Shown here piece by piece: positions 1,045 through 49,786 of a stretch of DNA of 64,000 nucleotides. How positions within the stretch are numbered: the first letter of the stretch is position 1; each line of letters begins with the position of its first letter. This DNA is from a virus: positions 1 through 64,000 of IMG/VR virus record IMGVR_UViG_3300040806_003461; one strand, 5' to 3'. A program made the translations under genes and the position numbers. The notes under the pieces were generated by a model. That model saw only the letters and a list, made by a program, of their open reading frames with translations. It searched no databases and had not been told where the DNA came from.

Positions 1045-4000
1045 TTACGACCTTTTCAGATCATCAACTTCTTCCTTGAGTTCTTTAACGGCTTCAATTA
1101 GTAATCCTGTAATATTACCGTAAGAAACTGATTTCATTCCAGTGGCATCGGTATTAACTAATTCAGGAACAACTGCCTCAACTTCCTGAGCAATCACGCC
1201 GACCTTCCTTGTTCCAGGAATAGCAATTCTTTCAAAATATACACCGCGCAATTGCGTAACTTTATCAAGAGCACCGCTAATTGTTTCAACATTCGTTTTA
1301 ACTCTTTCATCGGATTGTGCATCAATATCACCAGTTGCAGTGAAGTCTCCGCCGCTCAAATCAAACGTAAATTTGTTAACCGCGTTATTCTTGATGTACC
1401 AATTACCGATTGAAAGAACGGTATCCATAACAAGATCGGTTGAGTCAAATACGATATGGGCATCGCCACCTGTACCAAACTCGAGCTCTAAGTTATCATC
1501 AATTCTTAAGTTGCCTGCCGTTTTCTGAGCGAAAGCATCGGCTTCAAGATAATTACCTGTTGCACCGTTAATTGTTCCGCCAACTGTCATATTACCAGCA
1601 ACGTTGATATTTTCAACTGTTAATTGGTCGGTTGATGCCTGATAGAAGAAGTTGCTTTCTCCACCTGGGTTTGGCGATGCAGTTGCGTAAACTGGACGGC
1701 TACCTGTACCACCTTGTACCAACGGTACTGACATATTTGTTGACTGAAGGTTGGAGGCATAAAGGTCATTAATATTAACCTCTGAAGATTCAGCAGTTAA
1801 ACCTTGTAAACCTTGAATACCTTGGAAACCATCAGGACCAACATCGCCTTGAATACCCTGGGTACCTTGTGCGCCTTGAACACCCGATCCTTCGCCACCT
1901 TGGAAACCGTCATTACCCTGCATACCTTGGGCACCTTGGAAACCTTGGTTACCGCCAGATCCAACACCTAATGGACCTTGAACACCCTGATGACCTTGAG
2001 CACCTTGAATACCTTGAGTACCGCCGCCGCCATTTTCACCTTGGACACCGCCGCCGCCTTGAATACCTTGAATACCTTGGACACCACCACCGGTTCCACC
2101 TTCAGCACCTTGGAAGCCTTGCGTACCTTGAACGCCTTGAATACCTTGTAAACCTGATCCTCCAGTTGCCGACGTACCTTGTAGACCTTGCGGACCTTGG
2201 GTACCTTGAGCACCTTGGTTACCACCTGCAGCCAATTCACCTTGTAAACCTTGAACGCCTTGTACACCTTGAGTACCTTGGAAACCTGCCCCGCCTGTTC
2301 CGCCTGGACCTTGGAAACCTTGCGTACCTTGCGATCCTGAACCATCAGGACCTTGGAAACCTTGAAGACCTTGGACACCTTGCGAACCTTGTGCCGCAGC
2401 ACCACCTGTAATACCTTGAATACCTTGTGGTCCTGCAGGTCCTTCCTCACCTTCGGCGCCTGTAATACCTTGAACACCCTGTGATCCTGAACCAGATCCA
2501 CCTTGTAAACCTTGAGCGCCATCTTGGCCGTTGGTTCCTTGTGGACCTTGAAGACCTTGAATACCTTGTGCGCCAAATCCTGCTGGACCTAGATCACCTT
2601 GTAAACCTTGTGTTCCTTGAAGTCCTTGCAGACCTTGAGTACCCTGAGTACCACCTGCACCCAATCCGCCTTCACCTTGAATACCTTGTAAACCTTGAGT
2701 ACCTTGTGGACCTTGAACGCCTTGGTGTCCTTGGAAACCTTGTGTTCCATCAGATCCGTCGTTTCCTGCCGTACCTTGTGGGCCTTGGATACCTTGAATC
2801 TCTTCGCCTTGTAAACCTTGAACACCTTGTGTTCCGTCGGTGCCATCAACCCCACCGAGACCTTGGATACCTTGAACACCTTGCGAACCAGCACCATCAG
2901 CACCTTGGAAACCGAGGTCGCCTTGAATACCCGTGAAACCTTGAACACCTTGCGGTCCAGGATCACCTGCATCACCTGTTCTTGCAAAGGTAATGCGTAC
3001 GTCTTGGTTATCAGAATAAGAACTTACTGAACCGTTTAAGAATGTACAGTCAATTTCAAAATAACCAGATTGTTCTTGTAAAGCATCAATTGTATAGATT
3101 ACAAAGTTTGCTGCATTAGAACCGTCGGTTACTTTAAAGTGTCCTTTAATTGTAGAAGTAGAATCGTCAATTGTTCTTAAGTATGATTGTAGATCGTTGA
3201 AGTCATCGTCACGATCATCAATATACATTACCGTGGCTGAACCTAAGGCACCGTTGTTGAATTTTAATCTACCGATACCTGGGTCTGATGCGTTCGTATC
3301 AGATTCAAAAGTATAGTCAAAAGTAGCACCACCAAATCCACCGTCAGAACCTTGTATACCTAGATTACCTTGTAGACCTTGAAGTCCTTGGACACCTTGT
3401 GTACCTTGAACACCAGCACCAGTCTCACCTTGTAGTCCCTGTAGACCTTGTAGACCTTGCAATCCTTGTGTACCTTGAGCACCTTGCGTACCTTGGAAAC
3501 CAACGTCGCCTTGAATACCTGTAATACCCTGGAAGCCTTGAGTACCTTGCTGCGCTTCACCTTGAATACCTTGGAAACCTGTGAAACCTTGGATACCAGT
3601 TGTACCTTGGTAACCTTGAAGTCCTTGCAAACCTTGTAGACCCTGAAGACCTTGTAATCCTTGTACGCCTTGCGCCCCTTGTAAACCAGTATCTCCAGTA
3701 AATCCTTGTGTGCCTTGGACACCTTGTGTACCTTGAGCACCTTGTAGACCTGTAATACCTTGTAAACCGCGTGGGCCTGCAGGAATAAACGAAACAAGAG
3801 TATCAGGACCGTGATCGTTGTCTACGTTATCCCAATCATAACTTGCAACGGCACCCGAAGCAACATAAGTAACTGAGAATATACCGTATGCCTTTGAACC
3901 GCTGTCCCAATCAAATTCATTTATTTCGTAAACAACAAAATGGTGCCCAGCAGGACCATCATTGTCGGCTGTGCTTTCAATAAAGATATGGCCTTTTGGA

Positions 4001-5565
4001 CTTGCTAAGGTATCAATATAATCATAGAATTCATCTAACTGATTTGAATATTGATCGTCAGGAATATCATCAATGATAAGAGTATTTGCAGTACGAATAT
4101 CGTTACTGTTGATTTTCCAACTGCTTGCAGTAGGTGCTGAAATAGTACGGTCGCCGTCATAAAGGAATTGCCAAGTTAAACCGCCATGATCTCCATAGAA
4201 ACCTTGGACGCCTTGCGTACCTTGAGCTCCTTGAGAACCAGTTGTACCTTGCGGACCTGTGTTACCTTGAAGGCCAACATCGCCTTGAATGCCTTGCGTA
4301 CCTTGAGCTCCTTGAGCACCAATAAATCCTTGTGTACCTTGGAAACCTGTGAAACCTTGGATACCTGTGAAACCTTGTAAACCTTGCGTTCCCTGAATAC
4401 CTTGGAATCCGCGATCACCAGAAATATTAAATGCTACAATACAAGGAAGCGAAATATAAGTACCTGGATTGCCTGGCAGATCTTCAGCGACAAAATCTTC
4501 CTTTACAGCAGCACCCGATAGGTACGTTACATCCATATCCCAATAGTTACCATCGTCAGTAAGTTCTTGTATTGAAAAGATAACATATACAGATGGATTA
4601 TCACGTAATGTGATTTTCATGTATGCTTTATTAGCAGATGATGAAGAATCAATAGCTGTAAAATAACCTGTTAAATCAACATTAAATGAGTCGCTATCTG
4701 CAATCCAAATTTTAGTTGCGCCAGTGAGTGCTCCTGTATCAGCAGCCGGAGAATTGAAATACATAAACCCGCTAGTAGCAGGAGATGGTTCTGCAAAGTT
4801 GTGTGATACGTTGTATTGAACAACCATTCCAGAATCGTCGCCTGAATAACCTTGGAAACCGTCATTACCTTGGACACCTTGGAATGCCTGTGGGCCTTGT
4901 AAACCCTGAATACCTTGAAGACCTTGGACTCCTTGAGTACCTTGGATTCCTTGAACGCCTTGGATACCTTGAAGACCTTGCGTACCCTGATTACCTTGAA
5001 CGCCTTGGTTACCCTGAATACCAGTAATACCTTGGAAACCTTGAACACCTTGGTTACCACGGAAACCACGAGAACCTTGGATACCTTCTTCACCGATGGT
5101 ACCTTGCATTCCTTGAATACCAATAGGACCTTGGAAACCTTGAACACCACGGAACGAACCAATGTTTACCCAAGTGTTTGATCCAACGTAAATCCATAGT
5201 TCGTCATCAGCTTCATCAATAACACCTTCGCCAATGTTTGCTGATGGGAATGCGGCATTAAGAGTTGCTTGCGGGTCACCGCCTGAATCTACATCAGCTA
5301 CCGAACCGATAATTGTAAAACCAGGACCGTAATCGCCCTGTAAACCTTGTACCCCTTGTACCCCTTGAGTACCCTGTATTGTATTATTAGCAGCGCCGCC
5401 GTCAAGTAATTCCCACGCGGTACCATCAGAATATCTGATGTTTCCGTTGGTATCATAGATTAAAGATCCTTCAAATGGAACAGGATCTAGTTGCGTATAA
5501 TCTTGAGGAATACCTTGCCCAATTAGGGTGGTTCTTCCTCTTAAGCTCTTAAATCTACTCGACAT
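1045..5565 (-). CDS. Collagen-like tail fibre protein with C-terminal intramolecular chaperone (peptidase S74)
   Basis: Long Gly-X-Gln runs, three related globular inserts, C-terminal SDERVK...GVIAQEVE...SVSYG...LIEAVKEL chaperone motif. Confidence 0.85.
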   Translation of the reverse strand: MSSRFKSLRGRTTLIGQGIPQDYTQLDPVPFEGSLIYDTNGNIRYSDGTAWELLDGGAANNTIQGTQGVQGVQGLQGDYGPGFTIIGSVADVDSGGDPQATLNAAFPSANIGEGVIDEADDELWIYVGSNTWVNIGSFRGVQGFQGPIGIQGMQGTIGEEGIQGSRGFRGNQGVQGFQGITGIQGNQGVQGNQGTQGLQGIQGVQGIQGTQGVQGLQGIQGLQGPQAFQGVQGNDGFQGYSGDDSGMVVQYNVSHNFAEPSPATSGFMYFNSPAADTGALTGATKIWIADSDSFNVDLTGYFTAIDSSSSANKAYMKITLRDNPSVYVIFSIQELTDDGNYWDMDVTYLSGAAVKEDFVAEDLPGNPGTYISLPCIVAFNISGDRGFQGIQGTQGLQGFTGIQGFTGFQGTQGFIGAQGAQGTQGIQGDVGLQGNTGPQGTTGSQGAQGTQGVQGFYGDHGGLTWQFLYDGDRTISAPTASSWKINSNDIRTANTLIIDDIPDDQYSNQLDEFYDYIDTLASPKGHIFIESTADNDGPAGHHFVVYEINEFDWDSGSKAYGIFSVTYVASGAVASYDWDNVDNDHGPDTLVSFIPAGPRGLQGITGLQGAQGTQGVQGTQGFTGDTGLQGAQGVQGLQGLQGLQGLQGLQGYQGTTGIQGFTGFQGIQGEAQQGTQGFQGITGIQGDVGFQGTQGAQGTQGLQGLQGLQGLQGETGAGVQGTQGVQGLQGLQGNLGIQGSDGGFGGATFDYTFESDTNASDPGIGRLKFNNGALGSATVMYIDDRDDDFNDLQSYLRTIDDSTSTIKGHFKVTDGSNAANFVIYTIDALQEQSGYFEIDCTFLNGSVSSYSDNQDVRITFARTGDAGDPGPQGVQGFTGIQGDLGFQGADGAGSQGVQGIQGLGGVDGTDGTQGVQGLQGEEIQGIQGPQGTAGNDGSDGTQGFQGHQGVQGPQGTQGLQGIQGEGGLGAGGTQGTQGLQGLQGTQGLQGDLGPAGFGAQGIQGLQGPQGTNGQDGAQGLQGGSGSGSQGVQGITGAEGEEGPAGPQGIQGITGGAAAQGSQGVQGLQGFQGPDGSGSQGTQGFQGPGGTGGAGFQGTQGVQGVQGLQGELAAGGNQGAQGTQGPQGLQGTSATGGSGLQGIQGVQGTQGFQGAEGGTGGGVQGIQGIQGGGGVQGENGGGGTQGIQGAQGHQGVQGPLGVGSGGNQGFQGAQGMQGNDGFQGGEGSGVQGAQGTQGIQGDVGPDGFQGIQGLQGLTAESSEVNINDLYASNLQSTNMSVPLVQGGTGSRPVYATASPNPGGESNFFYQASTDQLTVENINVAGNMTVGGTINGATGNYLEADAFAQKTAGNLRIDDNLELEFGTGGDAHIVFDSTDLVMDTVLSIGNWYIKNNAVNKFTFDLSGGDFTATGDIDAQSDERVKTNVETISGALDKVTQLRGVYFERIAIPGTRKVGVIAQEVEAVVPELVNTDATGMKSVSYGNITGLLIEAVKELKEEVDDLKRS
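1800..5375 (-). repeat. Degenerate 9-bp coding repeats (CAAGGT-NNN) encoding Gly-X-Gln collagen triplets
   Basis: Very many accttg/ccttg units on the plus strand, in blocks separated by globular domains. Confidence 0.9.
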
Positions 5566-5989
5566 CGTCTTCCTCTGCCTGGCCTAGCGTGAACGAGATC
5601 ATAGCATCAACTGCTAAATTCGTATCAGCTTTAATTTCTAATAAATCACCGGACGCAAAGAATTGTCCGTTTAATGGCAAGGCAAAGGTATCGTAAGATG
5701 GAATCGGCATATTCCTAACTATCCAAAACTCATCATTTGATGCGTATCTGTGAGTTCTTACATCAACCTTTACCGTATTTGCGCTATGGTTTGAAATAAT
5801 GAGTGGACTGATAACCTCGCCAACGCCTGGTTCGGTTGTTGTTGACCCACCGAAAACCAATTCAGGAACTTCGTAGTTAGGAACCTCAATCAGCGTTTGC
5901 CAATTTGTTGTAACTGTAAAGTTACTAATAACCGGTTTGGCGTCAGGCGCCTGGGAGGTTTCAATTGTTGTGATCGTATTATTTGCCAT
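5555..5989 (-). CDS. Hypothetical virion structural protein
   Basis: 144-aa ORF overlapping both neighbours in the late operon. Confidence 0.6.
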   Translation of the reverse strand: MANNTITTIETSQAPDAKPVISNFTVTTNWQTLIEVPNYEVPELVFGGSTTTEPGVGEVISPLIISNHSANTVKVDVRTHRYASNDEFWIVRNMPIPSYDTFALPLNGQFFASGDLLEIKADTNLAVDAMISFTLGQAEEDDVE

Positions 5990-8900
5990 TAGATTGTTGC
6001 CCTACTGTTAGAAGCCCTTCTTGCAAGTTTACGAACTGAGGATGTAAATGGTCGGCCTTCAATTCGTCCTGTTCTACCGTTAATTCTTAGTCCTCTTGCG
6101 AAGTACTGGTTATTCAATTCGTCAGCGCCTGACCATCTGATTCTACCACCATTCTCTGACAATACAGAGGCAGTAGCAGAAATTGCAGAACCAACGTTTC
6201 TGAAGTTCAGCGGTAGTGCGTTTCTGTTAACACCTGCCGAAGCTCCGTTAAACTGGTGAGCAATGGATTCAACGAGTGAACCGAATGTTAAGAAGTTAGG
6301 TCTCAATACTGTATCAATTAAGACGTTATCAATTAACTCGGTTACCATGTTCCTATGCTCTAGGTCCGGTGCGATATTGTTATTTATATAGGTTTTCATC
6401 TGTGTCCAAGCGCCTTCGAAGGATTCTAGAAGATCCGTGTTATTTGCGCCTGCGTTTGCCCACGTTGTACCTGTCCAATACCAGATCTGTCCGATGTAAC
6501 GGTTTCCATTATTGTTTGTTGGAATAATGTATGCATCCCAGCGTTTCTTAGTTTCAATCGCATCACGAGTAGCCGTATCAATAACCGTTCCTTTGAATCT
6601 TAATCTGCGATAATCAGCAAATGTTCTTGGCGGATTAAATACCGGGAATACGTGTTGTGCATCAATGTTAAAGAATGCCGCTGCGTATGCTCTTGTTGAT
6701 TGATCTCCACCTGCGCCTTCAACGTTATATTCACCAGTCAAGTTAACTGATGGATCAACATATCTGAAGTCGTTTTGCATAACTTTCAGCAAGTTGTTTG
6801 CGTCACGATATGTCTTAGGTAGATCAATAAACTTGTATTCAGAAGTAATAAATCTTTGAACCTCGCGTTGTAATCTGCGCTTGTTGTTTGCCAAAATATC
6901 TTTAGAGAATCTGAATACTTTGTTTTTATCATCTTCCCATGTAAAGTCAGGTTCATTCAATGGACCTAAGTACTTCGGTGAGTTGAAGTAAAGTGCGTTG
7001 TAGAAGATCATACCGTTATCGTATGCCTGTTTTGCTCTTTCTTCATCACCCATTTCTGGGCGAAGTTTTTGTCCTGGGTAAGAACCTGTTACAACATCGC
7101 GAATGATTTCACCTAGGCGGCGATAAGATTGTGCTGTTGCAACTCTTGTGTTTTCTGGAATGCGTAATTGGTTATTCCAATAGTAGAAGTCCGCGTTCCA
7201 ACGAGATGCCGCGTTACCACCGTAGTTAAGATCCCAGCTGATAGCATCAATGATGTATCCTGAGTCACGGCGACATTTTGCTTTGCTATAGTCAATAATT
7301 GTAAAGTTATCTTTGATGTGTTGTACCACATCGTCAGCAAGGAATCCAAGATTATCGTCAATAGCATTTCCTGCCCATACCTTACTTGCATCAACCCAAG
7401 ATGTATTAGGTTCAACAAGTTCAGGTAGTGCATCCAATCCATCGCGGCGGATTGCTTCTTCGACGATACGAACCATATCAGCAGCCCATTCACCTTCAAC
7501 CGAAGATGCTGCATCATTTGTAGTATCCTGTCCTGCTTCCAATTCTTGAATAACTTTGCTAACAAGGTTTGCCATTTCGTCATAGAAATCTGCTGTCTGT
7601 TGACGTTGGTCAAACGGTAGAACACTTGTTGCATTATCAAAGTACATATTTGCCGCAAGTCTTGTTGCGTAGTTTGTTTCATATTGTACGTCGTGTGAAA
7701 TAGCATCAATCATAATGCCAACATCACGACGGCATTTCTCTTTAGGATAACTGATGCCGTTGTATTCGCTTGAGATGAAGTTAACCATGCTTGTTACTAA
7801 TGCTTCAAGCTTGTCATCAACTTTATCTTTTTCTGTATGGAATGTAGCAGGAATCCAATTTGTATATGGCTCAACTCTTGCTGGCAGATTTGTTGGATTG
7901 TTATCATCAGCAATATGAGCAATCATTTCGCCAAGTGCTTTAACTTCCGCTGCAATTTCTCTTCTTGCTGCAAGTGATGTCTTATCTTGTTTCTTGGTAT
8001 TTCCAACAACAGTTTGAACCGCCCATTCAGTTGCACTTACGAATGTATGAGCACCGGTATAACCTTGTGCAGTTCCTACATTTACTGTTACTGTTGTTGC
8101 AGTTACAGCTTCAACTTTCAGTGGAGTTTCAAATGCAGGATCTGTAACTCTTGGATGAGAAATTTGAACTGCAGGGCTACCACATTCAAATGTGAATGAT
8201 TCTTTAGCAAGTAAGATATGGCTTCCTACTTTCAAATCGTGATTGCCAAGAGTAATTACAAATTGACCGTTAAGAACATCGTAGGTTGCAGTAGATGGAG
8301 TATACTTTCTGCCAATTCTTAAAGGAACCGTTGTATTACGAGTAATATCATGCATTACTTTACCCATATGCATGAATGCTTTCTTCGTTGGTTCTCTTTG
8401 TTCAAGTGGTAACAAGTTAACCGCATTTACGAAGTAAATCTGAGCAGCATTCCACATTGCTGAATTACCGCCGTATTGAATATCGTGGGAAATTGCATCA
8501 ACCATGTATCCAACATCTCTGCGGCATTTTGCTGAATCATACTCGAGATAATCAAATTTCTCTTGTAGATGAGTATTAACGCCAGCGGCAAGTGGTGCAA
8601 GTCTTCCTGCAATAATTACTGCCTCTGCCTCGTAATTATATCCTGTACCTGTACCTGCTTGAGGTTCAATCGCGGCAGGCATATTAATTACTGAATCTTC
8701 GGTAATAATATTCGCAACAATATTCCACAGTCCTGGGATACGGTTTGCTTCCGCAGCTGAGGCTGTTGAGAATCCTGCTGTTACCTGTACTTCTGGGTTA
8801 CTTAAAGATTTTGAAACGGTTTGCTTCAATACAACTTGCTGAGAAACTGTACCTAAGTGTTCAAATACAGCAGCAGTTGGAGCTCTTTGATCTGCAGGTA

Positions 8901-11900
8901 ATCCTACATTAACTCCATTTTCAAAATAGAGTCTTGCAACATCTCTCATAGCAACATTTGATCCATGCAAGATATCGTGCTTAACAGCATCAAGCATATA
9001 ACCAACATCTCTACGGCATTTTGCTGTGTCGTATGAAAGCGATGAGTAATTTGTAGCAATCCAAGCAATACATTCTTCAACGATAAAGTCTCGGTTCAAA
9101 TCTAAACCATCTTCAACATTTTGTGCGCTTGTATTTTGATATGCTGTACCGTAATTATAGGCAGGTGCTGTTTCACCTTTCATAATTGCGATAATATTAT
9201 CAAACGATGCAGTTGCAGTTGTAAGAGCTGTACCTGACAATCTTGGCTCAATATCTCTTCTTAGATATTTGATTGCTTCAATTGTTTCTGCCAATTGCTC
9301 TTCAATTACTTTATCTGTACTTGCGTTACCAGCACGATATGCTCTGCCTGCATAAACACCGTTATAGTTGCCGCCTGTCTGTACATCGCGTTTAACCGCG
9401 TTGACAATATATCCAACATCTCTTGCGCATTTATCTTCATCATAAACAAAGTATTCGTCATTAATATATGCAACAACTTCATCTTGGATAAAGTCTTTGT
9501 TTTTCTGTAATGAATGGCGAGCGAACGTTCTGCTCGGTTCAATAAGAGGAGCAGTAGCAGTATTGGCAATAGGTAATGGTCTCAATGTCTGCTGACCTTT
9601 GGATATATCCAGTGATCCCGTATAATCTGGGATAACCAATCTATCATCAACAACTGCTGAAATAATATTTGCCAATCTCTTAGCTTCAGTGCCCGTTGCC
9701 GCTGTTGCCGCTGTTCCTGAAGTATCTTGAGTTTTTGTATTTCCTGTAGTTGGAGTTACCGCTGTTTCTGTAACGATATCATCAATTACATCAGCAAGAT
9801 GCTCGAACGCAAGCCTTGTAGGTTCACGTTGTTCGTATGGAAGAACATTAACCGCACCTTCGAAGTAGTATCTTGCGGCATTGATTGTTGCCTCTTCACC
9901 ACCATAAGAAAGGTCTTCGGCGATTGCATCAACAATATATCCAACATCACGTGGGCACTTATCAATTTGATATGCAAGACCATTATATTCTTGGCGAATA
10001 TGGTCAATGATTTCGTATTGGTACTTAGGAGTTGATCCCCACAGCTCTTCATATTGAGAAAGAACCGCGGCATCGTATCCTGTGCCTGTCAGTGGTGGCT
10101 CTTTAAACTCTGGGTTTGTTAATCCTGTATCTTTGCCGTCTGTACCATAACCTGGTCCGCCTGCAACATAACCTGCCGTATCTTCGTATCCTGTTGTACC
10201 AAATGTTTCTTTATAATTATCTTCTTCAATAATATCAGAAATTGTCTTGAACAATCTTACAACTTCATTTGCAGCTTCAGGATTTACAGATGGACGGAAT
10301 ACGCCATCGGCACGAACAAAGCTATGAACTCCCGTGTATCCTTTTGCATCTCCTACATCCAATGTGAATGTATTTGTTGTTGTGCTAATGATTTCACATG
10401 GAGTATTGAAGTATGGATCTGTTGCTCTTGGGTGGCTGATTTGAGTATTTGCCACTTCAGTGTTTGAGCAGGAGAAGGTAATTGCTCCTTCCTCCATTAC
10501 AATCCAATCCCCGGTTTCCATTCCGTGGCCATTGACTGTTACTGTCATAATACCTGTAACAGGATCATATGATGCATCAGTCGGAGTAAGCTCGTTGTTT
10601 GAAGCATTGAATGTTTGAGCAACTGGTGTTTGCAGAGTTGCAATTTCTTCTCTTACGATTTGGCCTGCAAGTTCTGCGATGTGTTGATATGCATGTGCAG
10701 TTTTAGGTTTTTCTTCATCATCCAATACGCTTACTGCATTGTCAAAGTATACTCTTGCGTTACCAAGCGTTGCAGCATTTGAACCATGCTGAACATCCCA
10801 AGATACTGCATCAATAAAGTATCCTAAATCTCTTTCGCAATCTGCTTCGTTATAAACAAATCCTGGATAAGTATTTGCCATCCAAGATGTAACTTCATCT
10901 TGAAGCATTGCTTTGTTTGCTTGCAACGCTTTTCTTGCAGCCAAAGTATCTTCTGAATGGTAACCATCACCGAAGGTAATAATATCAGCATTTGAAGTAC
11001 CGTTCTCCATGATTTGAACGATTTCATCAAACGCAGTATTTGCTCTTGCTTCTCCATCACCGCTTAAGATATCTGCTGAAACCTGATCTCTTAACCAACG
11101 GATTGCTCCTGCTGTTTCGGTAAGCTGCTCGGTAATTACTTTATCTGTACTTGCATTTCCTGAGCGATAAGCATAACCCGCAAAGATTGAGTTAATATTT
11201 GAATCTGTTGCCATGTCGCGGCGGACAGCATCAAGAATGTAACCCGTATCACGCATACAACGTTTATCGTCATATACGAAGTAGTTATCTTTCAACCAAG
11301 CATCAATTTCATCTTGTAAGAATGCTTTGTTCTTGAGAAGAGTATCAGCAGCATTAATCTTATCACGGGTAATTGTTGATCTTACCTTGATAACTGCGCC
11401 TTCTTCTGCACTTACAAATGTATGGTTGTTTGCATAACCATTTGGAACTGCGCCTGTATTAACTGTGATTGTAGTATTAGATACGGCAGTAACTGCAATT
11501 GGTTTTTGATAATTTGGTTCACCGATGCGTGGGTGAGAAATCTCAGTTACCGTCGCACCGTTTGCACAACTGAATACAACCGATTGAGGTTTAAATTCAA
11601 TATGGTCGTCAGTTGTAACGCCGTGTCCTTCGCCTAAGGTAATTTCCATCACACCAGTATCAGGAGCATATGTTGCTGTTGATGGAGTGAAGTATGAATC
11701 AACCTTAGCAGGATCATTAAAGTAGATTGCATTTGTATCAATACAATCCACATCTGCACTTACAAATGTATGGTCAGATTGATAACCGTTTGCATTACCT
11801 ACGTTAACTGTAATCGTTGTTCCTGTTGCACCTGTAATACGAACAGGCTGGCGGTAAGCAGGTTCACCAACTCTTGGATGGCTCAATTCTGTAATGATTG

Positions 11901-14900
11901 AGGCATTTGAAGTATTTGCGCAAGAGAATGTGATTGCTGAATCCGCAATATTAATCCATCTTCCTACTGGCAGATTATGTTGACCGATAGTTAATGTCAT
12001 ATCACCAGAGATTGGATCGTAAGAAGCGGTTGACGGTGTGAACTTGCCGTTATAAACATTGGTAACTTTAACCGCGTCGGGTTCCGCATATACAAAGAAT
12101 TGCGGAGATGTGTAAGTACCTGAATCGCCGGCATTTACCGTGATCGTTGTTGCTGTGACGGCTGTAATTACAAGATCCGTTTCAAACGCAGGATCTGTCG
12201 CTCTTGGGTGGCTGATTTCAAATGTACCTGAAGTGTTTGAGCATTCAAACGTCATAGAGCCTGCTTCAATTTGAATTGTATCACCAATTCTTAAATCGTG
12301 AGCGCCGACTGTCATTGTCATCAAACCAGTGTTGCCGGAATAGTCAGCAGCAGTAGGAGTAAAGCGACCGTTATTAATTCCGTATTCTTTAATTCCATTC
12401 AGTTTTGCTCTTACAAAAGTATGTGGTTCAGCATAACCGTTTGGAATAGAACCTGCATTCACAGTGATTGTTGTTGTGTTTGCCGCTGTAATTGAAACTG
12501 CAGTTCTAAATAAAGGATCGGTTGTTCTTGGATGAGAAATTTCAGTTACAATGCCAGTTGCTGTATTTGCACAAGAAAGCGTAATTGCTTCTTCATCAAA
12601 GATAATCTGATCTCCAACCTCAAACGTATGGTTGTTTAATGAGATTACCATAACACCTGTTGAAGGATTATAGTCAACATCTGTTGGAGTATATTGACGC
12701 CCGCCTGGTGCCATGATATTTAAAATATCGTTATAGGCTGTTTCAACTCTGTCTGAATAAATGCTGTCGGCAAGTAAGTCAACAGTTTCAAGTTTAAGGT
12801 GTTCAATTGCTCCTACTGTTTCAGGCAATTGGTCGTTAATTGTTACCGCTGCGGTTGCGCCGCGATATGCAACACCTGACTGAATTGAGTTGAAGTTTGT
12901 ACCTAGCTGCGCATCTCTTAATACCGCAGGTACAATGTACTCTTTCATATCACGTTGGCATTTTGCCGAATCATAGAAGAACCATTCGTCATCAGCCCAA
13001 TTCATCATGTAATCTTGAATGAATGCTTTGTTTGCTTGTAATTGCTTACGAGCATTACGCTTATTAGCAGGAATATTTGTATCATCACTGAATGAGATTT
13101 CTGAACCCAATTCAATAACTGCACCGTCAAGAACATCTTTTAATGTATGCGTTCCTTTGTATCCAGTTGCGCCAACATTAACCGTAATCGTTGTTCCTGT
13201 TGTTGCTGTAATCGGAAGAGCAGATTTGAAAGCAGGATCTGATTTTCTTGGGTGTACTAATTCTACAACGCCGCCATCAGTATCACAAGTAAATGTGAAT
13301 GATTCAGGCATCAGTAGAATATATCTTCCTACCTCAAGATTGTGTGATCCGATTGTAATTGTGAACGTTCCGTCAGTAGCATATGTTGCCGCAGTAGGAG
13401 TATAACGCGTTCCATCCTGTTTTAGGATTGAAAGAATTTCTTCAAACTTCTCATAAGCTTCGGCTGCAAATGGTGCAGAGTTTGCTTCAACAATTTTATC
13501 AGTTGAATAACGCAATCTTTCGTATGCTGAAATTGTTTCATCTCTTTGTGCACCGATTACGTTCTTAGCAGCTTTAAAGTAATAAGCATTACCTGCGGTT
13601 ACTGAGTTGTAGTTTGTATCAAGCATTGTGTCATATTTGACTGCAGGCAAGATAAACTCACGAACGTCGCGTTTACATTTTGCTGAATCGTATGCAAAGA
13701 AGTTTGGATTATTGTCTAACCAATCAACAAATTCTTCGATGATAAACTCGCGGTTGTCTTGAACAACTTCACGAGCTCCTGTACGAGGACCAACTCCTGT
13801 ATCAGCAAAGATAATGCTGTTAGCAACCGGTTCACCATTTTGTAATACGTTTAATGTTTCGTTAATTGATTTATCTACACGATCATTAACTGCGGTGTTT
13901 GCATTCTCAAAGATAAAGTTCATTTCATCTTTAAGGTGCTCAATTGAACCTACTGTTTCTGTAAGCTGTTCATTAACAACAACATATGAGATTGGCGAAC
14001 GATAAGTAATACCGTTTAAGCGACCCCAATAGTTTGAATTCGTTGCAACGTCCATGCCAACGTTATCAACAATGATTCCTGTATCACGGAAACATTTATC
14101 GGCATTGTAACCTTGGTAGCCAAGGCCAGGAGAGCCGTTAAATCCTGTTGTAGTATTTGCTGTTAAGTACTCAATCATGTCATCAATGATTGCTGGTGCG
14201 CTTTCAGCAAGATCGTCGGCAAATGCTGTGTTAGCGATTAAGTTATTAGAATCGTTAACTTTTGCTGGGTTAACAATAACAGTATTACCACGAGCACGCA
14301 TCGAGATGTCACCGAACTGCGAACCTGAGTTATTCAATGTCATCTGGCCGCCATCAAGGGCAAAGAATGCCTGACGAGTAAAGATTGACAATGAACCAAT
14401 ACCGTTAACACCAGCGCCGTTCTTAGCAACATAACCTGTACCGTTTTGAGTACGAGGCGTGAAACCAAAACAAAGTACGTAGGTGTAAAGCGAGTCGGTA
14501 TCAAGTACCGCTCTGTCCGCTAGAAGACAACCACCACCGCGACCGACCAACCTATTTGGGAAATCGTCAATGCCGATACGTTCAACTGTACCTGTACCGC
14601 CTCTTTGAGCGTAAAGAATATCTCCAACTTCTACGTTACCTTTTAAGTTACGGACATAAATTTGTCTGTCAGAATCAATATCATCAACGTATGAAATATA
14701 CCCAGTAGCACCACTTGAGAATGTAACCTCATCGTCAATCTCAAATTGAGCTTGCGGCGAGTGACCAACTTCTAAATAGAATTCCTGTCCTAAGTCAAGG
14801 ATTGTACCTTTTGAGTTGAATGGGTTAAGTGGTGGTTCAACATCCAAACGGTTGAAGTTTGACAACTGAGAGGAGTCACGAATATATGGAGATCTTCTTA

Positions 14901-16581
14901 ACAATGCACCTGGGCGATATGCAATTGCGAAACCGCCTTCAGGTTGGTCAAAGTTATCAACCTCAAAGTTCATATATGCAAAACCTTGAACATAACAACC
15001 AGATCCAACTAGGACACCGTTAGTTCTTTCCCAACCAGGTTTCTTCTGAATAACTGTAGCATACTGGCCTGCAGTTGAAGTCATTGCACAATCATCAGGA
15101 AGAACAATTGGTTCATCGACATAATAAGTACCTGGTCCACAAGAAATATGAACTGCGTTATTAATATCGTTTCGGTTTACATCACCACCTGCCTTTTCAA
15201 TTGCAAGCTGTGAAGCACGCTTAAGTGTTCTAACAGGTTTAAGCATTGAACCTGGATTATTATCATCACCATCTACAGCAACGTGAACCTTTAATGCTTT
15301 TTCTGCTGATCTGCCAAGCTCGTCAGTTAATTGAGCATAAGAAATCTGTTCGACTTTACCAGTCTTTTCGTTTTTCAATGCAAAGAATGAGTTTTCAGCA
15401 ATACCTGGATCAAAGACTGCACTCAATTGCATATCGTAATCAACAAGAGTAGAATCAACGATTACTGAATTAGCAAGATCAACTCTTTCAATCGTTCCGT
15501 CACGAATATCTGAATTAGTAATTACGCCACCATCAAACGAAGACCTTGTCATGTTTGTGTTAGCAGAAGTCATATCCTCAGTAGAAGAACTTGTAATTGT
15601 CATGTTCTGAGCAATTACGTTATTCATATTACCTTGGAATGACGAATCAGTGATTACAGTATTTGCGACTGTACCTTCGTCAATTGTCGTATTCGTAAAT
15701 ACGTTATTGTTACCAGTTCCGTTTGAGAAATCTGAGTTATCAATATTAGTATCAGTAATTGTGCCTTCGTCAAATACTGACTGCGTGATTACAATATTGT
15801 TCGCAGTTGAATTACTAATTGCACCAGCATTAAATGTTGATGTTGAAATTGCAGAACCGGTGATTGTATTATTAGCAAGTCTCGTGTCCCAAATTTCGCC
15901 ATTTGAAAAACGTGAATTTGTAATATCAACATCGTCAAGATCAGTGTCGAAAATGTTACTGTTGGAAATATCAACCGTGTCAATTGTTCCACGGGAAATC
16001 TCAACATCAGTCATTACAACATCATCTAGGACGAGGTTTGTAAGAATTAGGTTATTAGCAGTACCGCCTTCAATTTCAATGTTCTCAATACGAGTATTCG
16101 TAAAGACGTTATTGTTGCCTGTGCCATTTGAGAAATCTGAATTATCAATCGTAGAATTAATGAACACCATGTTGTTGCCGGTGCCACGTTCTAACGTGCC
16201 ATCATTAAATTCAGAATTAGTAATGATTGAGTTATTTACAGTACCGTCATTAAATGAAGATTCATTAATAACAGACTCTGTCATTGTTGAATCGTCTATC
16301 TCTGCCCGATTGATAGTCGTATCATTTATAGTACCACGATTATAAATTGAATCGTTAATCGTGACTCCACTTAGTGTGGAGTTAAACATATTGACGCCTG
16401 AAATTGAACCACCGGTGATTGTTATTCTATTGAACTCTTCATACTGAATAGCTTGTACTAATTCACGCCTTGTGATGTTTTTAGTACCATCGTCACCTTG
16501 GATCAAATTAACAATGACAAAGAGGTCTTCTGGGCGCGTATTAACGCCAAGTATCGGGCCTAATTCTGAAATCTTTGACAT
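5989..16581 (-). CDS. Giant (3530 aa) repeat-containing virion structural protein
   Basis: N-terminal beta-solenoid-like repeats, a beta-helix-like region, about 11 helical C-x-R-D repeats and 7 beta-rich HPR repeats; late promoter upstream. Confidence 0.8.
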   Translation of the reverse strand: MSKISELGPILGVNTRPEDLFVIVNLIQGDDGTKNITRRELVQAIQYEEFNRITITGGSISGVNMFNSTLSGVTINDSIYNRGTINDTTINRAEIDDSTMTESVINESSFNDGTVNNSIITNSEFNDGTLERGTGNNMVFINSTIDNSDFSNGTGNNNVFTNTRIENIEIEGGTANNLILTNLVLDDVVMTDVEISRGTIDTVDISNSNIFDTDLDDVDITNSRFSNGEIWDTRLANNTITGSAISTSTFNAGAISNSTANNIVITQSVFDEGTITDTNIDNSDFSNGTGNNNVFTNTTIDEGTVANTVITDSSFQGNMNNVIAQNMTITSSSTEDMTSANTNMTRSSFDGGVITNSDIRDGTIERVDLANSVIVDSTLVDYDMQLSAVFDPGIAENSFFALKNEKTGKVEQISYAQLTDELGRSAEKALKVHVAVDGDDNNPGSMLKPVRTLKRASQLAIEKAGGDVNRNDINNAVHISCGPGTYYVDEPIVLPDDCAMTSTAGQYATVIQKKPGWERTNGVLVGSGCYVQGFAYMNFEVDNFDQPEGGFAIAYRPGALLRRSPYIRDSSQLSNFNRLDVEPPLNPFNSKGTILDLGQEFYLEVGHSPQAQFEIDDEVTFSSGATGYISYVDDIDSDRQIYVRNLKGNVEVGDILYAQRGGTGTVERIGIDDFPNRLVGRGGGCLLADRAVLDTDSLYTYVLCFGFTPRTQNGTGYVAKNGAGVNGIGSLSIFTRQAFFALDGGQMTLNNSGSQFGDISMRARGNTVIVNPAKVNDSNNLIANTAFADDLAESAPAIIDDMIEYLTANTTTGFNGSPGLGYQGYNADKCFRDTGIIVDNVGMDVATNSNYWGRLNGITYRSPISYVVVNEQLTETVGSIEHLKDEMNFIFENANTAVNDRVDKSINETLNVLQNGEPVANSIIFADTGVGPRTGAREVVQDNREFIIEEFVDWLDNNPNFFAYDSAKCKRDVREFILPAVKYDTMLDTNYNSVTAGNAYYFKAAKNVIGAQRDETISAYERLRYSTDKIVEANSAPFAAEAYEKFEEILSILKQDGTRYTPTAATYATDGTFTITIGSHNLEVGRYILLMPESFTFTCDTDGGVVELVHPRKSDPAFKSALPITATTGTTITVNVGATGYKGTHTLKDVLDGAVIELGSEISFSDDTNIPANKRNARKQLQANKAFIQDYMMNWADDEWFFYDSAKCQRDMKEYIVPAVLRDAQLGTNFNSIQSGVAYRGATAAVTINDQLPETVGAIEHLKLETVDLLADSIYSDRVETAYNDILNIMAPGGRQYTPTDVDYNPSTGVMVISLNNHTFEVGDQIIFDEEAITLSCANTATGIVTEISHPRTTDPLFRTAVSITAANTTTITVNAGSIPNGYAEPHTFVRAKLNGIKEYGINNGRFTPTAADYSGNTGLMTMTVGAHDLRIGDTIQIEAGSMTFECSNTSGTFEISHPRATDPAFETDLVITAVTATTITVNAGDSGTYTSPQFFVYAEPDAVKVTNVYNGKFTPSTASYDPISGDMTLTIGQHNLPVGRWINIADSAITFSCANTSNASIITELSHPRVGEPAYRQPVRITGATGTTITVNVGNANGYQSDHTFVSADVDCIDTNAIYFNDPAKVDSYFTPSTATYAPDTGVMEITLGEGHGVTTDDHIEFKPQSVVFSCANGATVTEISHPRIGEPNYQKPIAVTAVSNTTITVNTGAVPNGYANNHTFVSAEEGAVIKVRSTITRDKINAADTLLKNKAFLQDEIDAWLKDNYFVYDDKRCMRDTGYILDAVRRDMATDSNINSIFAGYAYRSGNASTDKVITEQLTETAGAIRWLRDQVSADILSGDGEARANTAFDEIVQIMENGTSNADIITFGDGYHSEDTLAARKALQANKAMLQDEVTSWMANTYPGFVYNEADCERDLGYFIDAVSWDVQHGSNAATLGNARVYFDNAVSVLDDEEKPKTAHAYQHIAELAGQIVREEIATLQTPVAQTFNASNNELTPTDASYDPVTGIMTVTVNGHGMETGDWIVMEEGAITFSCSNTEVANTQISHPRATDPYFNTPCEIISTTTNTFTLDVGDAKGYTGVHSFVRADGVFRPSVNPEAANEVVRLFKTISDIIEEDNYKETFGTTGYEDTAGYVAGGPGYGTDGKDTGLTNPEFKEPPLTGTGYDAAVLSQYEELWGSTPKYQYEIIDHIRQEYNGLAYQIDKCPRDVGYIVDAIAEDLSYGGEEATINAARYYFEGAVNVLPYEQREPTRLAFEHLADVIDDIVTETAVTPTTGNTKTQDTSGTAATAATGTEAKRLANIISAVVDDRLVIPDYTGSLDISKGQQTLRPLPIANTATAPLIEPSRTFARHSLQKNKDFIQDEVVAYINDEYFVYDEDKCARDVGYIVNAVKRDVQTGGNYNGVYAGRAYRAGNASTDKVIEEQLAETIEAIKYLRRDIEPRLSGTALTTATASFDNIIAIMKGETAPAYNYGTAYQNTSAQNVEDGLDLNRDFIVEECIAWIATNYSSLSYDTAKCRRDVGYMLDAVKHDILHGSNVAMRDVARLYFENGVNVGLPADQRAPTAAVFEHLGTVSQQVVLKQTVSKSLSNPEVQVTAGFSTASAAEANRIPGLWNIVANIITEDSVINMPAAIEPQAGTGTGYNYEAEAVIIAGRLAPLAAGVNTHLQEKFDYLEYDSAKCRRDVGYMVDAISHDIQYGGNSAMWNAAQIYFVNAVNLLPLEQREPTKKAFMHMGKVMHDITRNTTVPLRIGRKYTPSTATYDVLNGQFVITLGNHDLKVGSHILLAKESFTFECGSPAVQISHPRVTDPAFETPLKVEAVTATTVTVNVGTAQGYTGAHTFVSATEWAVQTVVGNTKKQDKTSLAARREIAAEVKALGEMIAHIADDNNPTNLPARVEPYTNWIPATFHTEKDKVDDKLEALVTSMVNFISSEYNGISYPKEKCRRDVGIMIDAISHDVQYETNYATRLAANMYFDNATSVLPFDQRQQTADFYDEMANLVSKVIQELEAGQDTTNDAASSVEGEWAADMVRIVEEAIRRDGLDALPELVEPNTSWVDASKVWAGNAIDDNLGFLADDVVQHIKDNFTIIDYSKAKCRRDSGYIIDAISWDLNYGGNAASRWNADFYYWNNQLRIPENTRVATAQSYRRLGEIIRDVVTGSYPGQKLRPEMGDEERAKQAYDNGMIFYNALYFNSPKYLGPLNEPDFTWEDDKNKVFRFSKDILANNKRRLQREVQRFITSEYKFIDLPKTYRDANNLLKVMQNDFRYVDPSVNLTGEYNVEGAGGDQSTRAYAAAFFNIDAQHVFPVFNPPRTFADYRRLRFKGTVIDTATRDAIETKKRWDAYIIPTNNNGNRYIGQIWYWTGTTWANAGANNTDLLESFEGAWTQMKTYINNNIAPDLEHRNMVTELIDNVLIDTVLRPNFLTFGSLVESIAHQFNGASAGVNRNALPLNFRNVGSAISATASVLSENGGRIRWSGADELNNQYFARGLRINGRTGRIEGRPFTSSVRKLARRASNSRATI

Positions 16582-17523: not shown

Positions 17524-18297
17524 TTAAAACACCCTATATCCGTCGTTCCAATTACCTTCGCCGCGTGTATTCACAACATAAGTTCTATCGCCCGATGCTC
17601 CACCTCTAATACGTACATAACCAGGAGATCCGCTTCCACCGTTTTGAGGAAGACTATTGTAACCACCACCGCCTGCGCCAGTTCTTATATCAACATAAGA
17701 GTTAACGGCAATGTATGTTCCTGATGCCGAACCGCCGCGCGAACCGCCTGCGCCCGCGTTTCCAGCAGAATCGTTTTTACCGCCACCATCACCACCGCCT
17801 CCACCACCGCTTGCGCCCCAAGCTGTGCGTGTTGAAGCTCCGCCGCTGTTATTAGCACTACCGCCGCCACCGCGCCCATTACCATTAATAGGAGAGTTTT
17901 GACCGTTACCGCCTGATGTACTTCCAACGTTACCAGATCCGCCGCCTCCCCCACCGGATACTCTAACCACATCGTTTCCGCTGTTGTTTCTTACCCACGA
18001 ATCACCGCCAGCTCCACCGCCACCGTACACGGCATTATTAGGTCCGCCATCGTTAAATCCACCACCACCGCCTCCCCCACCGGCAGAAATTACAACATTA
18101 AGTGGGTAACCATCTGTCGCCCCATAAAAATTACTTAATGCAATTTGGCCTGATGTTGGAACGTTGTTGTTTTGTGGAATATTAGGAACATAGCCGCCAC
18201 CGCGATAATATTCGCGCAACTCATCCTGGCCTGGTGTATTGCCAAACTCATTTCTTAAGTCATTAATTGATATTGTACCGCTAGTCTGGAGTGGCAT
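17524..18297 (-). CDS. Glycine-rich tail fibre tip/adhesin-like protein
   Basis: N-terminal SGTISINDLRNEFG...SGQIALSNFYG motif followed by poly-Gly tracts. Confidence 0.65.
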   Translation of the reverse strand: MPLQTSGTISINDLRNEFGNTPGQDELREYYRGGGYVPNIPQNNNVPTSGQIALSNFYGATDGYPLNVVISAGGGGGGGGFNDGGPNNAVYGGGGAGGDSWVRNNSGNDVVRVSGGGGGGSGNVGSTSGGNGQNSPINGNGRGGGGSANNSGGASTRTAWGASGGGGGGDGGGKNDSAGNAGAGGSRGGSASGTYIAVNSYVDIRTGAGGGGYNSLPQNGGSGSPGYVRIRGGASGDRTYVVNTRGEGNWNDGYRVF

Positions 18298-19189
18298 TCT
18301 TGAGCCTCTGTACTTCGTCTTGCAATTCTTTGACTGCTTCGATGAGGAGGGCTACTATTTGACCGTATCTTACTGCTTTATGTTCACCACGTGTTGGATG
18401 GTCGGCTGTATAAACGAGGCCGGGTAGTACCATCTCAACTTCTTGAGCAATAACACCTGTCGCTCTCTCACCTGGTTTGTCTTTATATTCAAAGGTGTAT
18501 CCACCTAATGCTCTAACCTTTTCAAGTGGGTTTTCAATTCTTTCAATATCTTGCTTTAATGCAATATCCGACGTGCTATAATCTGTTACAACTTCTCCTA
18601 ATGCATAAACATTATTTGCAGTAATATCAGCGTTTAACATTGAAAGGTTACCATTAAAGTTTACGGTTCCTTGGAAACGAGCATCACCATTTACATCAAG
18701 GTCTGTTGTAATTTCAACAGCTTCAGTTGTAATAAGATTAGGTACAGTTAACGTTCCGCCTGTAGTAAGTTCAAATTTAGTAGTACCGGTTCCGGTGTCA
18801 ATAATAAACTTTCGGTTTGTTGAATCTTGAATACCAACATCCCAACCTACGGTACCATCAGTGTATCTTGTTTGACCACCGCCTGAGGAATATAAGAATG
18901 TTGCGCATCGCTGATCTGTTGCTGCTGTAATTGTAATAGGTACATCAAAATCAACGTCTGCCGATGCTGTTCTCGAACTTATAAGATCAGATTGAACACT
19001 GGTTGTTGCGATTAAATTAGTTGCAGTAAAGTTCCCAACAAGGGTAGCATTACCATTTGTTGTATCACCAGAACCAGTAGAGGCGGTGACAGTTTCATTC
19101 TTAAACAAATCCACTAATTCGTTTGTTTTATCAAACCAATTCTGAAAAGTTTGAGATGTTGCGATATTCGTAATGCCTGACTTTGCCAT
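18281..19189 (-). CDS. Short tail fibre protein with C-terminal S74 intramolecular chaperone
   Basis: N-terminal QTFQNWFDKTNEL attachment motif; C-terminal SDIALK...GVIAQEVE...AVRYG...LIEAVKEL. Confidence 0.8.
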   Translation of the reverse strand: MAKSGITNIATSQTFQNWFDKTNELVDLFKNETVTASTGSGDTTNGNATLVGNFTATNLIATTSVQSDLISSRTASADVDFDVPITITAATDQRCATFLYSSGGGQTRYTDGTVGWDVGIQDSTNRKFIIDTGTGTTKFELTTGGTLTVPNLITTEAVEITTDLDVNGDARFQGTVNFNGNLSMLNADITANNVYALGEVVTDYSTSDIALKQDIERIENPLEKVRALGGYTFEYKDKPGERATGVIAQEVEMVLPGLVYTADHPTRGEHKAVRYGQIVALLIEAVKELQDEVQRLKNATPD

Positions 19190-48839: not shown

Positions 48840-49786
48840 TTGAAGCTTGCCTCCATCATAATTTCGGTTAGACACGCAACCATATTTATTTCAAGGTCAG
48901 CAACAAAGTTAGCCTTATACATATAATCAGCAAGTGTTACGATAAAACCAGGTTGTGAACGAAGTTCAACCTTGTCATTTGCCATATCATAGATACGACG
49001 AAACATTTCATTCATATCTTGATCTGAATTCTTTGCAACCCATTTACGCATTTCTGAAAAGTTCTTTGCCTTTAACAAACGGAACAGTTCATCAACTGAT
49101 TCTTGTTTCAGGTTAACAAAGATACCTTCGTCAATACGACCTGATGCTGCATAGGATTGGAGTTCAGTCAATACACGACGGAAATCAGGAAAGTGCTTTT
49201 CAATAACTTTGGCAACTACCTTGTTATCGTATTCAACGTTTTCGTTATCAAGAATTTGTAGAACACGTTTATAGAATTGAGCTGCCATCTTCGGACGCTC
49301 GGATTGCTCGATTGTGAAATCAACTTCAGACAGTCGAGAGCGAAGAGGAGCAATTATACGATTCTTAAAGTTACAAGTAAAGATAAACCCACAGTTGCTT
49401 GAATATTCTTCAATAAAATTTCGGAGTGCGGGCTGAACATTTGCTGCGTTGAGATAGTCCGCCTCGTCAAAGATGACGTATTTTCTGCCACCTGATAAGG
49501 ATACCGCTGAGGCATACGTGGAGATGTCATATCGGAGAGTGTCGATATTGACGTTAAGTGAACCGTTTTTAACAATATAATCGCAGCCAAGTTCATCGAG
49601 CATAGCTTTTGCGATAGTAGTTTTGCCAACACCTGGGCCGCCAGTTAGTAATAAGTTTGGAACATTGTCATCAGCAACGAACTTTTGAAACATTGCTTTT
49701 GTAGTATCAGGCAGAATTGTATCATTAATCTTTTGCGGACGATATTTTTCTACCCAAAGTACTTCGTTTGATTTTGCATCAACCAT
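48836..49786 (-). CDS. gp44: Clamp loader large subunit gp44 (RFC-like AAA+)
   Basis: LWVEKYRP, GGPGVGKTT, DEAD, FPDFRR. Confidence 0.95.
   Translation of the reverse strand: MVDAKSNEVLWVEKYRPQKINDTILPDTTKAMFQKFVADDNVPNLLLTGGPGVGKTTIAKAMLDELGCDYIVKNGSLNVNIDTLRYDISTYASAVSLSGGRKYVIFDEADYLNAANVQPALRNFIEEYSSNCGFIFTCNFKNRIIAPLRSRLSEVDFTIEQSERPKMAAQFYKRVLQILDNENVEYDNKVVAKVIEKHFPDFRRVLTELQSYAASGRIDEGIFVNLKQESVDELFRLLKAKNFSEMRKWVAKNSDQDMNEMFRRIYDMANDKVELRSQPGFIVTLADYMYKANFVADLEINMVACLTEIMMEASFK

Follow-up and report, generated by a model that had tools for sequence, protein, structure and literature searches.

In the 64,000-nucleotide stretch of viral DNA analysed here (positions 1 to 64,000 of IMG/VR record IMGVR_UViG_3300040806_003461; hereafter the window), a single open reading frame (ORF) on the minus strand, at positions 5989-16581, encodes a protein of 3530 residues, P0001, whose middle part is made up of 12 globin-like helical modules with seven beta modules in between. 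Sequence profiles and a predicted fold, taken together, indicate that the helical modules are very probably remote homologues of the phycobiliproteins (bilin-binding globins), and the phycobiliprotein closest to them in sequence is probably phycocyanin alpha. The explanation that we favour, to which we give an even chance, is that P0001 carries an array of phycobiliprotein-derived, bilin-carrying fibre domains.

Twelve helical modules and their conserved motif

The reading frame encloses the whole region (6700-14250) for which the initial annotation had described 11 tandem helical repeats with a C-x-R-D motif, together with one KTYRD copy. A motif scan recovered all of these copies, with their variants and places exactly as described, including the one that reads DKCARDVGY near position 9430 (Cys codon at 9427-9429). 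The copies are thus real, but they are not strictly tandem, since beta modules and linkers stand between some of them.

All 12 modules are encoded on the minus strand. From the N-terminal side, motif scan and alignment placed module 1 (KCFRD, Cys830, residues 792-930) at positions 13792-14208, module 2 (KCKRD, Cys969, residues 931-1069) at 13375-13791, module 3 (KCQRD, Cys1208, residues 1170-1308) at 12658-13074, module 4 (RCMRD, Cys1775, residues 1737-1875) at 10957-11373, module 5 (DCERD, Cys1915, residues 1877-2015) at 10537-10953 and module 6 (KCPRD, Cys2209, residues 2171-2309) at 9655-10071. Module 7 (KCARD, Cys2385, residues 2347-2485; 9127-9543) is the copy whose fold was modelled and the one closest to phycocyanin alpha. 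It is followed by four KCRRD copies, which the same scan and alignment placed at 8716-9132 (module 8, Cys2522, residues 2484-2622), 8224-8640 (module 9, Cys2686, residues 2648-2786), 7432-7848 (module 10, Cys2950, residues 2912-3050) and 6973-7389 (module 11, Cys3103, residues 3065-3203). The array ends with the Cys-less module 12 (KTYRD, Thr3257, residues 3219-3357; 6511-6927), whose Thr is conserved at the terminal copy in orthologues. The Cys codons run from 14092-14094 down to 7273-7275, and the Thr codon of module 12 lies at 6811-6813.

The C-x-R-D motif stands at the start of helix E in 11 of the 12 copies. When units were cut from 38 residues before the motif Cys to 100 residues after it, the 12 units aligned over about 130 columns with pairwise identities of 17-47%, and the motif Arg, the motif Asp, a second Asp 11 residues further on and one Thr were invariant in all of them. 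In addition, the motif Cys (at all 11 positions), Arg and Asp were invariant across 12 diverse orthologues, which argues that the repeats are more than a chance resemblance. The same pattern was observed in a larger set of 857 repeat copies, consisting of the 12 from the window and 845 from 80 IMG/VR loci. In this set the Cys column held 800 Cys, 56 Thr (the terminal copy) and a single Ala, the Arg was kept in 856 copies, the Asp in all 857 and the preceding Lys in 702, the residue between Cys and Arg varying freely, as it does in phycobiliproteins. Cys, Arg and Asp were the most informative columns of the domain. A search for stand-alone short forms (76-279 residues) yielded one fragment only.

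Probable relationship of the modules to phycobiliproteins

In every alignment made, the motif of the modules fell on Cys84/Arg86/Asp87 of the phycobiliproteins. Profile-profile comparison of 227 non-redundant repeats with 31 genuine phycobiliprotein sequences from five cyanobacterial genomes gave a probability of 92.3% in a local hhalign run (E = 5.5e-7, 100 columns), and a second run with the same two families gave 76% (E = 2.2e-5) in identical register. Both runs placed the Cys on Cys84, Gly57 on the conserved Gly102 and ETIEAIKYL on VEALKYI of helix G, so that the echo of phycobiliprotein helices downstream of the motif, pointed out in the initial annotation, was found in register. The real score was 43.8; with the target reversed it was 15.1, and 30 rounds of column shuffling gave 7-19. 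Furthermore, the N-terminal and C-terminal parts of the repeat, aligned separately, returned the same register (P = 0.009 and 0.002, respectively).

Other searches gave results of varying strength. In a single BLASTP comparison, module 7 matched Nostoc CpcA with E = 3e-5. A profile of the 12 repeats searched against the PDB retrieved phycocyanin alpha chains among six weak matches, with KAKCvRDVGY aligned on the motif. The repeat hidden Markov model, run against a decoy set of 3279 cyanobacterial ORFs, returned phycobiliproteins in all of its first 134 matches, a result favoured by the fact that many phycobiliproteins in this set had been fetched by their KCARDIGYY motif. The phycobiliprotein family PF00502 was matched by 9 of 106 single repeats (best E = 8e-4), the next family being matched by three, and precomputed PF00502 matches were present on many orthologues. 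An ESM Atlas search gave no usable match. A closer kinship to cyanobacterial BBAG-like paralogues was also considered but not supported, as their hhalign score was 14.9, which is noise (three sequences, with no authentic BBAG-1 or BBAG-3 among them), vs 43.8 for the phycobiliproteins.

The fold of module 7 was modelled with AlphaFold, reaching a pLDDT of 78 with a 12-row alignment and of 88, with seven helices, when 106 rows were used. A Foldseek search of the PDB with this model returned phycobiliproteins as its 21 best matches (probability 0.98-0.75, E = 0.2-1, TM about 0.5). Among 48,161 representative chains to which the model was aligned in an unbiased scan, far-red allophycocyanin (8or7_A) ranked first (Z 8.5, 2.2 Å over 86 residues) and eight of the top 14 chains belonged to the phycobiliprotein family, with ApcE in fourth place; the globin-fold sensors RsbR, pXO2-61 and DosC were also listed. 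Helices E to H of the model superposed on allophycocyanin, phycocyanin, phycoerythrin and ApcE, which ranked first, with deviations of 2.0-2.5 Å over 81-87 residues and Z values of 7-9. For phycocyanin alpha chains, 83 residues superposed at 2.2-2.3 Å with 26-32% identity.

Several results weigh against this kinship, or against carrying it over to the whole domain. PF00502 stayed below the Pfam cut-off in HMMER searches, scoring 11-16 bits vs a cut-off of 22.2; its E values were 0.36 for the whole of P0001, 0.015 for module 7 (residues 36-120 on profile positions 73-154) and 0.006 in a six-frame search of the phage record. The repeat profile, run on the complete genomes of five cyanobacteria, retrieved no phycobiliprotein at E <= 10. 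The motif contributes over half of the profile-profile score, which fell to 19 (E = 0.012) once the nine motif columns were taken out, a value equal to the highest obtained by shuffling. As for the fold, superposition is limited to helices E to H (model residues 34-122), and the N-terminal helix pair, itself confidently modelled, is placed differently, with a full-length Foldseek root mean square deviation of 13-17 Å, so that the pocket may differ as well. Moreover, Z values of 8-9 are attainable by unrelated helical bundles and are not on their own proof of common descent.

These points would fit a generic four-helix bundle of separate origin that carries by chance a C-x-R-D at a helix start, its matches arising from the motif and from helical composition; a de novo four-helix design and the stressosome protein RsbR did equal the phycobiliproteins in their structure-scan scores. 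We nevertheless consider such an origin improbable. The separately aligned halves of the repeat are collinear with phycobiliproteins in the same register, the G-helix pattern EA[IL]KY[LI] is common to CpcA, and the Gly57/Gly102 correspondence, the identities in the structure-based alignments, the composition of the two structure scans and the top ranks of the decoy test all speak against chance. RsbR, on the other hand, is itself a globin-fold relative and serves as an outgroup for the bilin-binding globins (PMC10151467). For the phycobiliprotein-like domains claimed by the initial annotation, sequence profiles and fold model agree, with the Cys on Cys84, the model at pLDDT 88 and phycobiliproteins at the top of the Foldseek list; statistically the relationship is a remote one, and the agreement does not extend to the N-terminal helix pair.

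Compared with phycocyanin alpha (CpcA), the phage domain shares the arrangement of helices E, F, G and H, the K-C-x-R-D-x-G-Y at the start of helix E (K83-C84-A85-R86-D87 in CpcA), Gly102 and the G-helix pattern. It differs from light-harvesting phycobiliproteins in its length of about 120 residues, in the modelled placement of its A-B helix pair and in lacking the X-Y helices and the interface residues Asp13, Arg93 and Tyr97, which are invariant in the set of 31. The repeat aligns only to phycobiliprotein positions of about 38-148, with other residues at the positions of Arg93 and Tyr97, and the module is therefore not a subunit of the phycobilisome type. Whereas such subunits are free proteins of 160 residues in the phycobilisome, the phage modules are fused in 11-12 copies within a virion protein, encoded by a phage without photosynthesis genes.

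Two other groups of proteins offer parallels. The BBAGs are phycobiliprotein paralogues co-encoded with heme oxygenase and reductases that bind bilins without lyases (Rockwell et al. 2023, PMC10151467); like the phage domain they stand outside the phycobilisome and have no light-harvesting role, and some have a CXRD motif (PMC10151467). They are, in contrast, small cellular proteins of non-photosynthetic bacteria and cyanobacteria, encoded in gene clusters with pre-PcyA. The ApcE (LCM) domain and smURFP resemble the phage domain in that the phycobiliprotein fold occurs within a larger multidomain protein or without a partner, and in these the bilin is attached autocatalytically. ApcE-type chains were found in the structure scan (4xxi_A with Z 8.2; 7eyd, 9wg7 and 7sc7 in the top 14), and smURFP in the Foldseek list. 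ApcE differs in having one such domain, in the position of its Cys and in being a core-membrane linker of the phycobilisome, not a virion protein.

Possible pigment binding, bilin genes and light

Pigment binding by the modules is plausible, with the chances evenly divided. The idea is suggested by three observations: no part of the domain is better conserved than the attachment motif, the domain and cpeT occur together in cultured phages, and a relative of the window phage has the giant gene as well as a heme oxygenase/bilin reductase pair. The roles of the CXRD residues and lyase-independent bilin binding by related globins have been described (PMC10151467). According to the mechanism that we propose, the helical domain of about 120 residues, present in 11 copies and a degenerate one, would descend from the bilin-binding globin family and would have lost the X-Y helices that phycobiliproteins use for alpha/beta pairing. 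It would have kept the helix E site, with the Lys, the Cys (thioether to bilin ring A), the Arg (propionate) and the Asp (pyrrole NH). During assembly in the infected cell each domain would take up a linear tetrapyrrole, made by a heme oxygenase and a bilin reductase that the phage itself encodes, or else supplied by the host, and attachment might be spontaneous, as in BBAGs and ApcE, or aided by a lyase such as a phage CpeT. The released particle would then bear a pigment array on its host-recognition apparatus. By our estimate, with 11 sites per chain and tens of chains per particle, a suspension of 1e12 particles per ml would have an absorbance of about 0.01-0.02, so low that the pigment could have gone unnoticed in earlier preparations.

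The search for bilin genes, also proposed in the initial annotation, gave a divided outcome. No heme oxygenase (hemO) or ferredoxin-dependent bilin reductase (FDBR) gene was found in the window's own record, which is 38% complete. Both were found next to each other in a related genome, G006, which is complete (CheckV 100%), has 221 kb and contains an orthologous giant gene with 12 repeats; the pair occupies positions 2998-3537 and 3772-4455 of locus L268 (G006:C1:143997-145455). This finding strengthens the pigment idea. The pair lies about 105 kb from the giant gene in the same genome. For its FDBR, the closest counterpart is a pcyX-like gene in Pelagibacter phage Mosig (33%). A gp59 helicase loader gene is located just downstream of the pair.

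Among 17 cultured phages, the domain and CpeT (PF06206) were both present in 13 and both absent in four (P-SSM2, S-SM2, S-SSM7 and P-SSP7), a count uncorrected for phylogeny. Phage Syn1, listed without cpeT in a 2010 table (Sullivan et al. 2010, PMC3037559), was found to have the gene by PF06206 (E = 1.5e-35). In the window and 86 related loci no CpeT was found at up to 10 kb from the giant gene, and none was present anywhere in the record of the window or in four others related to it. Of the complete genomes with the domain that were tested, each has either a bilin lyase gene or a pair of genes for bilin synthesis. The association has its exceptions, and these count against a pigment-carrying array: the co-occurrence of domain and CpeT is not universal, as G006 has the domain without CpeT; bilin synthesis genes occur without the domain in P-SSM2, S-SSM7 and the Pelagibacter phage Mosig (cf. 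PMC3037559); and the co-occurrence count ignores the relatedness of the phages. As a separate observation, S-PM2 (NC_006820 163952-164479) and Syn1 (GU071105 19950-20462) each have a full-length cpeT at a distance of 1.3-1.5 kb upstream of a giant gene that encodes K-C-x-R-D modules, and in S-PM2 a 2OG-Fe(II) oxygenase gene stands between the two.

A domain of phycobiliprotein descent could also have been recruited free of pigment, as a rigid helical block of a long fibre, its K-C-x-R-D being kept for helix capping, for salt bridges to the second Asp, for contacts between domains or chains, or for metal or disulfide chemistry. The deviating N-terminal helix pair of the model, the loss of the X-Y helices and of Arg93 and Tyr97, and the absence of a recognisable lyase in G006 are in line with this possibility, as is the extra invariant Asp (D53), which lies 11 residues past the motif Asp on the same helix and has no counterpart in phycobiliproteins. 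We regard it as possible though doubtful, because 800 of 857 copies keep a Cys that faces the solvent, next to a near-universal Arg and Asp, in a domain whose remainder has drifted to 17-30% identity, a pattern that is difficult to account for unless a ligand is bound. The terminal copy without Cys has still retained R-D, and the bilin lyase or synthesis genes of the complete domain-bearing genomes also speak against a domain free of pigment.

The ligand might instead be a metal ion or a tetrapyrrole other than a bilin, such as heme, or else a covalent cross-link might form at the Cys during fibre maturation. The globin fold is versatile, photoglobins and BBAG-2 illustrate ligand variation in the wider family (PMC10151467), and some invariant residues of the modules, the extra Asp and Tyr residues, lack phycobiliprotein counterparts. 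The match of K-C-x-R-D-x-G-Y to the bilin site of phycocyanin alpha is specific, however, and the genomic association is with bilin genes, which makes these alternatives very unlikely in our judgement.

If the array carries bilin, its most attractive role would be to sense light and thereby gate adsorption or the triggering of the baseplate; photoprotection, or a purely structural use of the holo-domains, would be alternatives. Adsorption of S-PM2 requires light but not host photosynthesis, and in darkness adsorption fails for P-HM1 and P-HM2, in contrast to P-SSM2 and P-SSP7 (PMC6628666). The three light-requiring phages have the domain, whereas the two that adsorb in the dark do not (n = 5), an anecdotal but suggestive correspondence. 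The proposal that the bilin-loaded array acts as a virion photoreceptor, in which light would cause a conformational or redox change that gates adsorption or baseplate triggering, is speculative, and we think it rather unlikely to hold in this form.

The possible significance of such an array lies in two questions, namely why phages make bilins, to which a bilin-binding array on the host-recognition apparatus would be a candidate answer, and why some phages adsorb only in light, on which it also bears. What cyanophages use pebS, pcyA, ho1 and cpeT for "remains a mystery", notably in phages of Prochlorococcus, hosts that have no phycobilisomes (PMC3037559, PMC2984593). Similarly, uncultured phages, including a SAR11 phage, have hemO-pcyX cassettes with no known pigment acceptor, the purpose of which was left open (2024, PMC11480375). 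A virion photoreceptor, if true, would explain why light-dependent adsorption of cyanomyoviruses is independent of host photosynthesis, and would provide a viral substrate for PebS, PcyA and PcyX, with HemO and CpeT, even where hosts have no phycobilisomes. Light sensing would be a new kind of virion function. The domain would also add a new lineage to the bilin-binding globins, and would be a source of biliprotein tags that are small, form repeats and possibly attach the bilin by themselves. In the literature, no paper was found on phycobiliprotein-like domains in phage structural proteins, most subscription journals lying outside the search.

The giant gene, its phage and its relatives

P0001 (5989-16581, minus strand) begins with a conserved N-terminus, continues with a pentapeptide beta-helix, a conserved region of about 350 residues and the modules, and ends with a conserved C-terminus. 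The pentapeptide-repeat region covers residues of about 60-390 (15400-16400, minus strand) and matches Pfam PF13599 above the cut-off (E = 5.9e-13). The protein as a whole matches the PHROGs annotations 'virion structural protein' (E = 6.5e-137) and 'tail fiber protein' (E = 5.5e-119), with PHROG 701 and PHROG 5342 among the families matched. Its gene is flanked by gp6-like and gp8-like baseplate wedge genes on one side and by a collagen-like fibre gene on the other, and modules of the same type occur in P-HM2 and S-PM2 in genes annotated as gp7, tail fiber, short tail fiber or virion structural. Both gene position and similarity to known virion proteins thus place P0001 at the baseplate or tail fibre, in agreement with the initial annotation of a virion protein, and its sequence is best explained as that of a giant fibre protein attached to the baseplate in a T4-like phage.

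A cyanophage-like setting was not upheld. When 50,697 phage records were searched by tblastn, modules were found in 150, of which 149 are named after Synechococcus, Prochlorococcus or cyanophage and one is filed under 'Marine'; a megablast of the giant gene against the phage records gave no match. The domain was not found in phages Mosig, Melnitz, phiN3 and DLP6. At least two thirds of the sampled words of the window DNA were present in 15 estuary metagenome runs, and half or less in marine and seawater runs. Neither psbA nor hli was found in the complete relative G006, nor was cpeT, which supports the earlier statement that photosynthesis genes are absent. The window phage is an atypical T4-like virus and not a typical cyanophage, with a relative that has hemO and a bilin reductase. 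An ordinary marine cyanomyovirus was rejected in view of the affinities of gp6 and the clamp loader and of the lack of psbA and hli in G006. For the window's gp6 (32449-34245, minus strand), the closest counterpart was found in Sinorhizobium phage phiN3 (38%), and for the clamp loader (48836-49786, minus strand) in Stenotrophomonas phage DLP6 and Methylophilales phage Melnitz (55-56%, cyanophages reaching 52-53%).

The giant proteins of T4-like cyanomyoviruses (S-PM2 p091, a 'tail fiber' of T4-GC 830; the S-PM2 protein of T4-GC 734; and the gp7-like PHM2_086 and PHM2_096 of P-HM2) resemble P0001 in their K-C-x-R-D helical modules and in their baseplate or tail-fibre gene neighbourhood. They differ in having 2-9 recognisable copies and only 22-27% identity to P0001, and their phages carry psbA and cpeT, unlike the clade of the window. 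In the RefSeq entry of S-PM2 (NC_006820 165928-177267, locus L250), a run of tRNA features lies inside the 'short tail fiber' coding sequence under a shared locus tag, which looks like a coordinate or annotation error.

P0001 contains a second repeat family, consisting of the seven beta-rich modules of about 95 residues each, which stand with linkers between some of the helical modules. Their consensus comprises YTPT..Y....G, a conserved Cys (TF.C), ISHPR..DP and TITVNVG...GY...HTF; they are located at residues of about 1050-1150, 1290-1740, 1990-2090 and 2750-2850, and are matched by PHROG 1276 and others. The part of P0001 that is best conserved among orthologues lies at residues of about 430-790 (14200-15300, minus strand), with long invariant runs; it opens with KVHVAVDGDDNNPGS..KPVRTLKRA and gave no Pfam match. 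We take its start to resemble the onset of right-handed beta-helix (pectate-lyase-like) tailspike domains.

The next gene downstream (1045-5565, minus strand) encodes a collagen-like tail fibre of 1506 residues with a C-terminus like those of long-tail-fibre distal subunits, and a C-terminus of the same kind is present in the 302-residue product of the ORF at 18281-19189.

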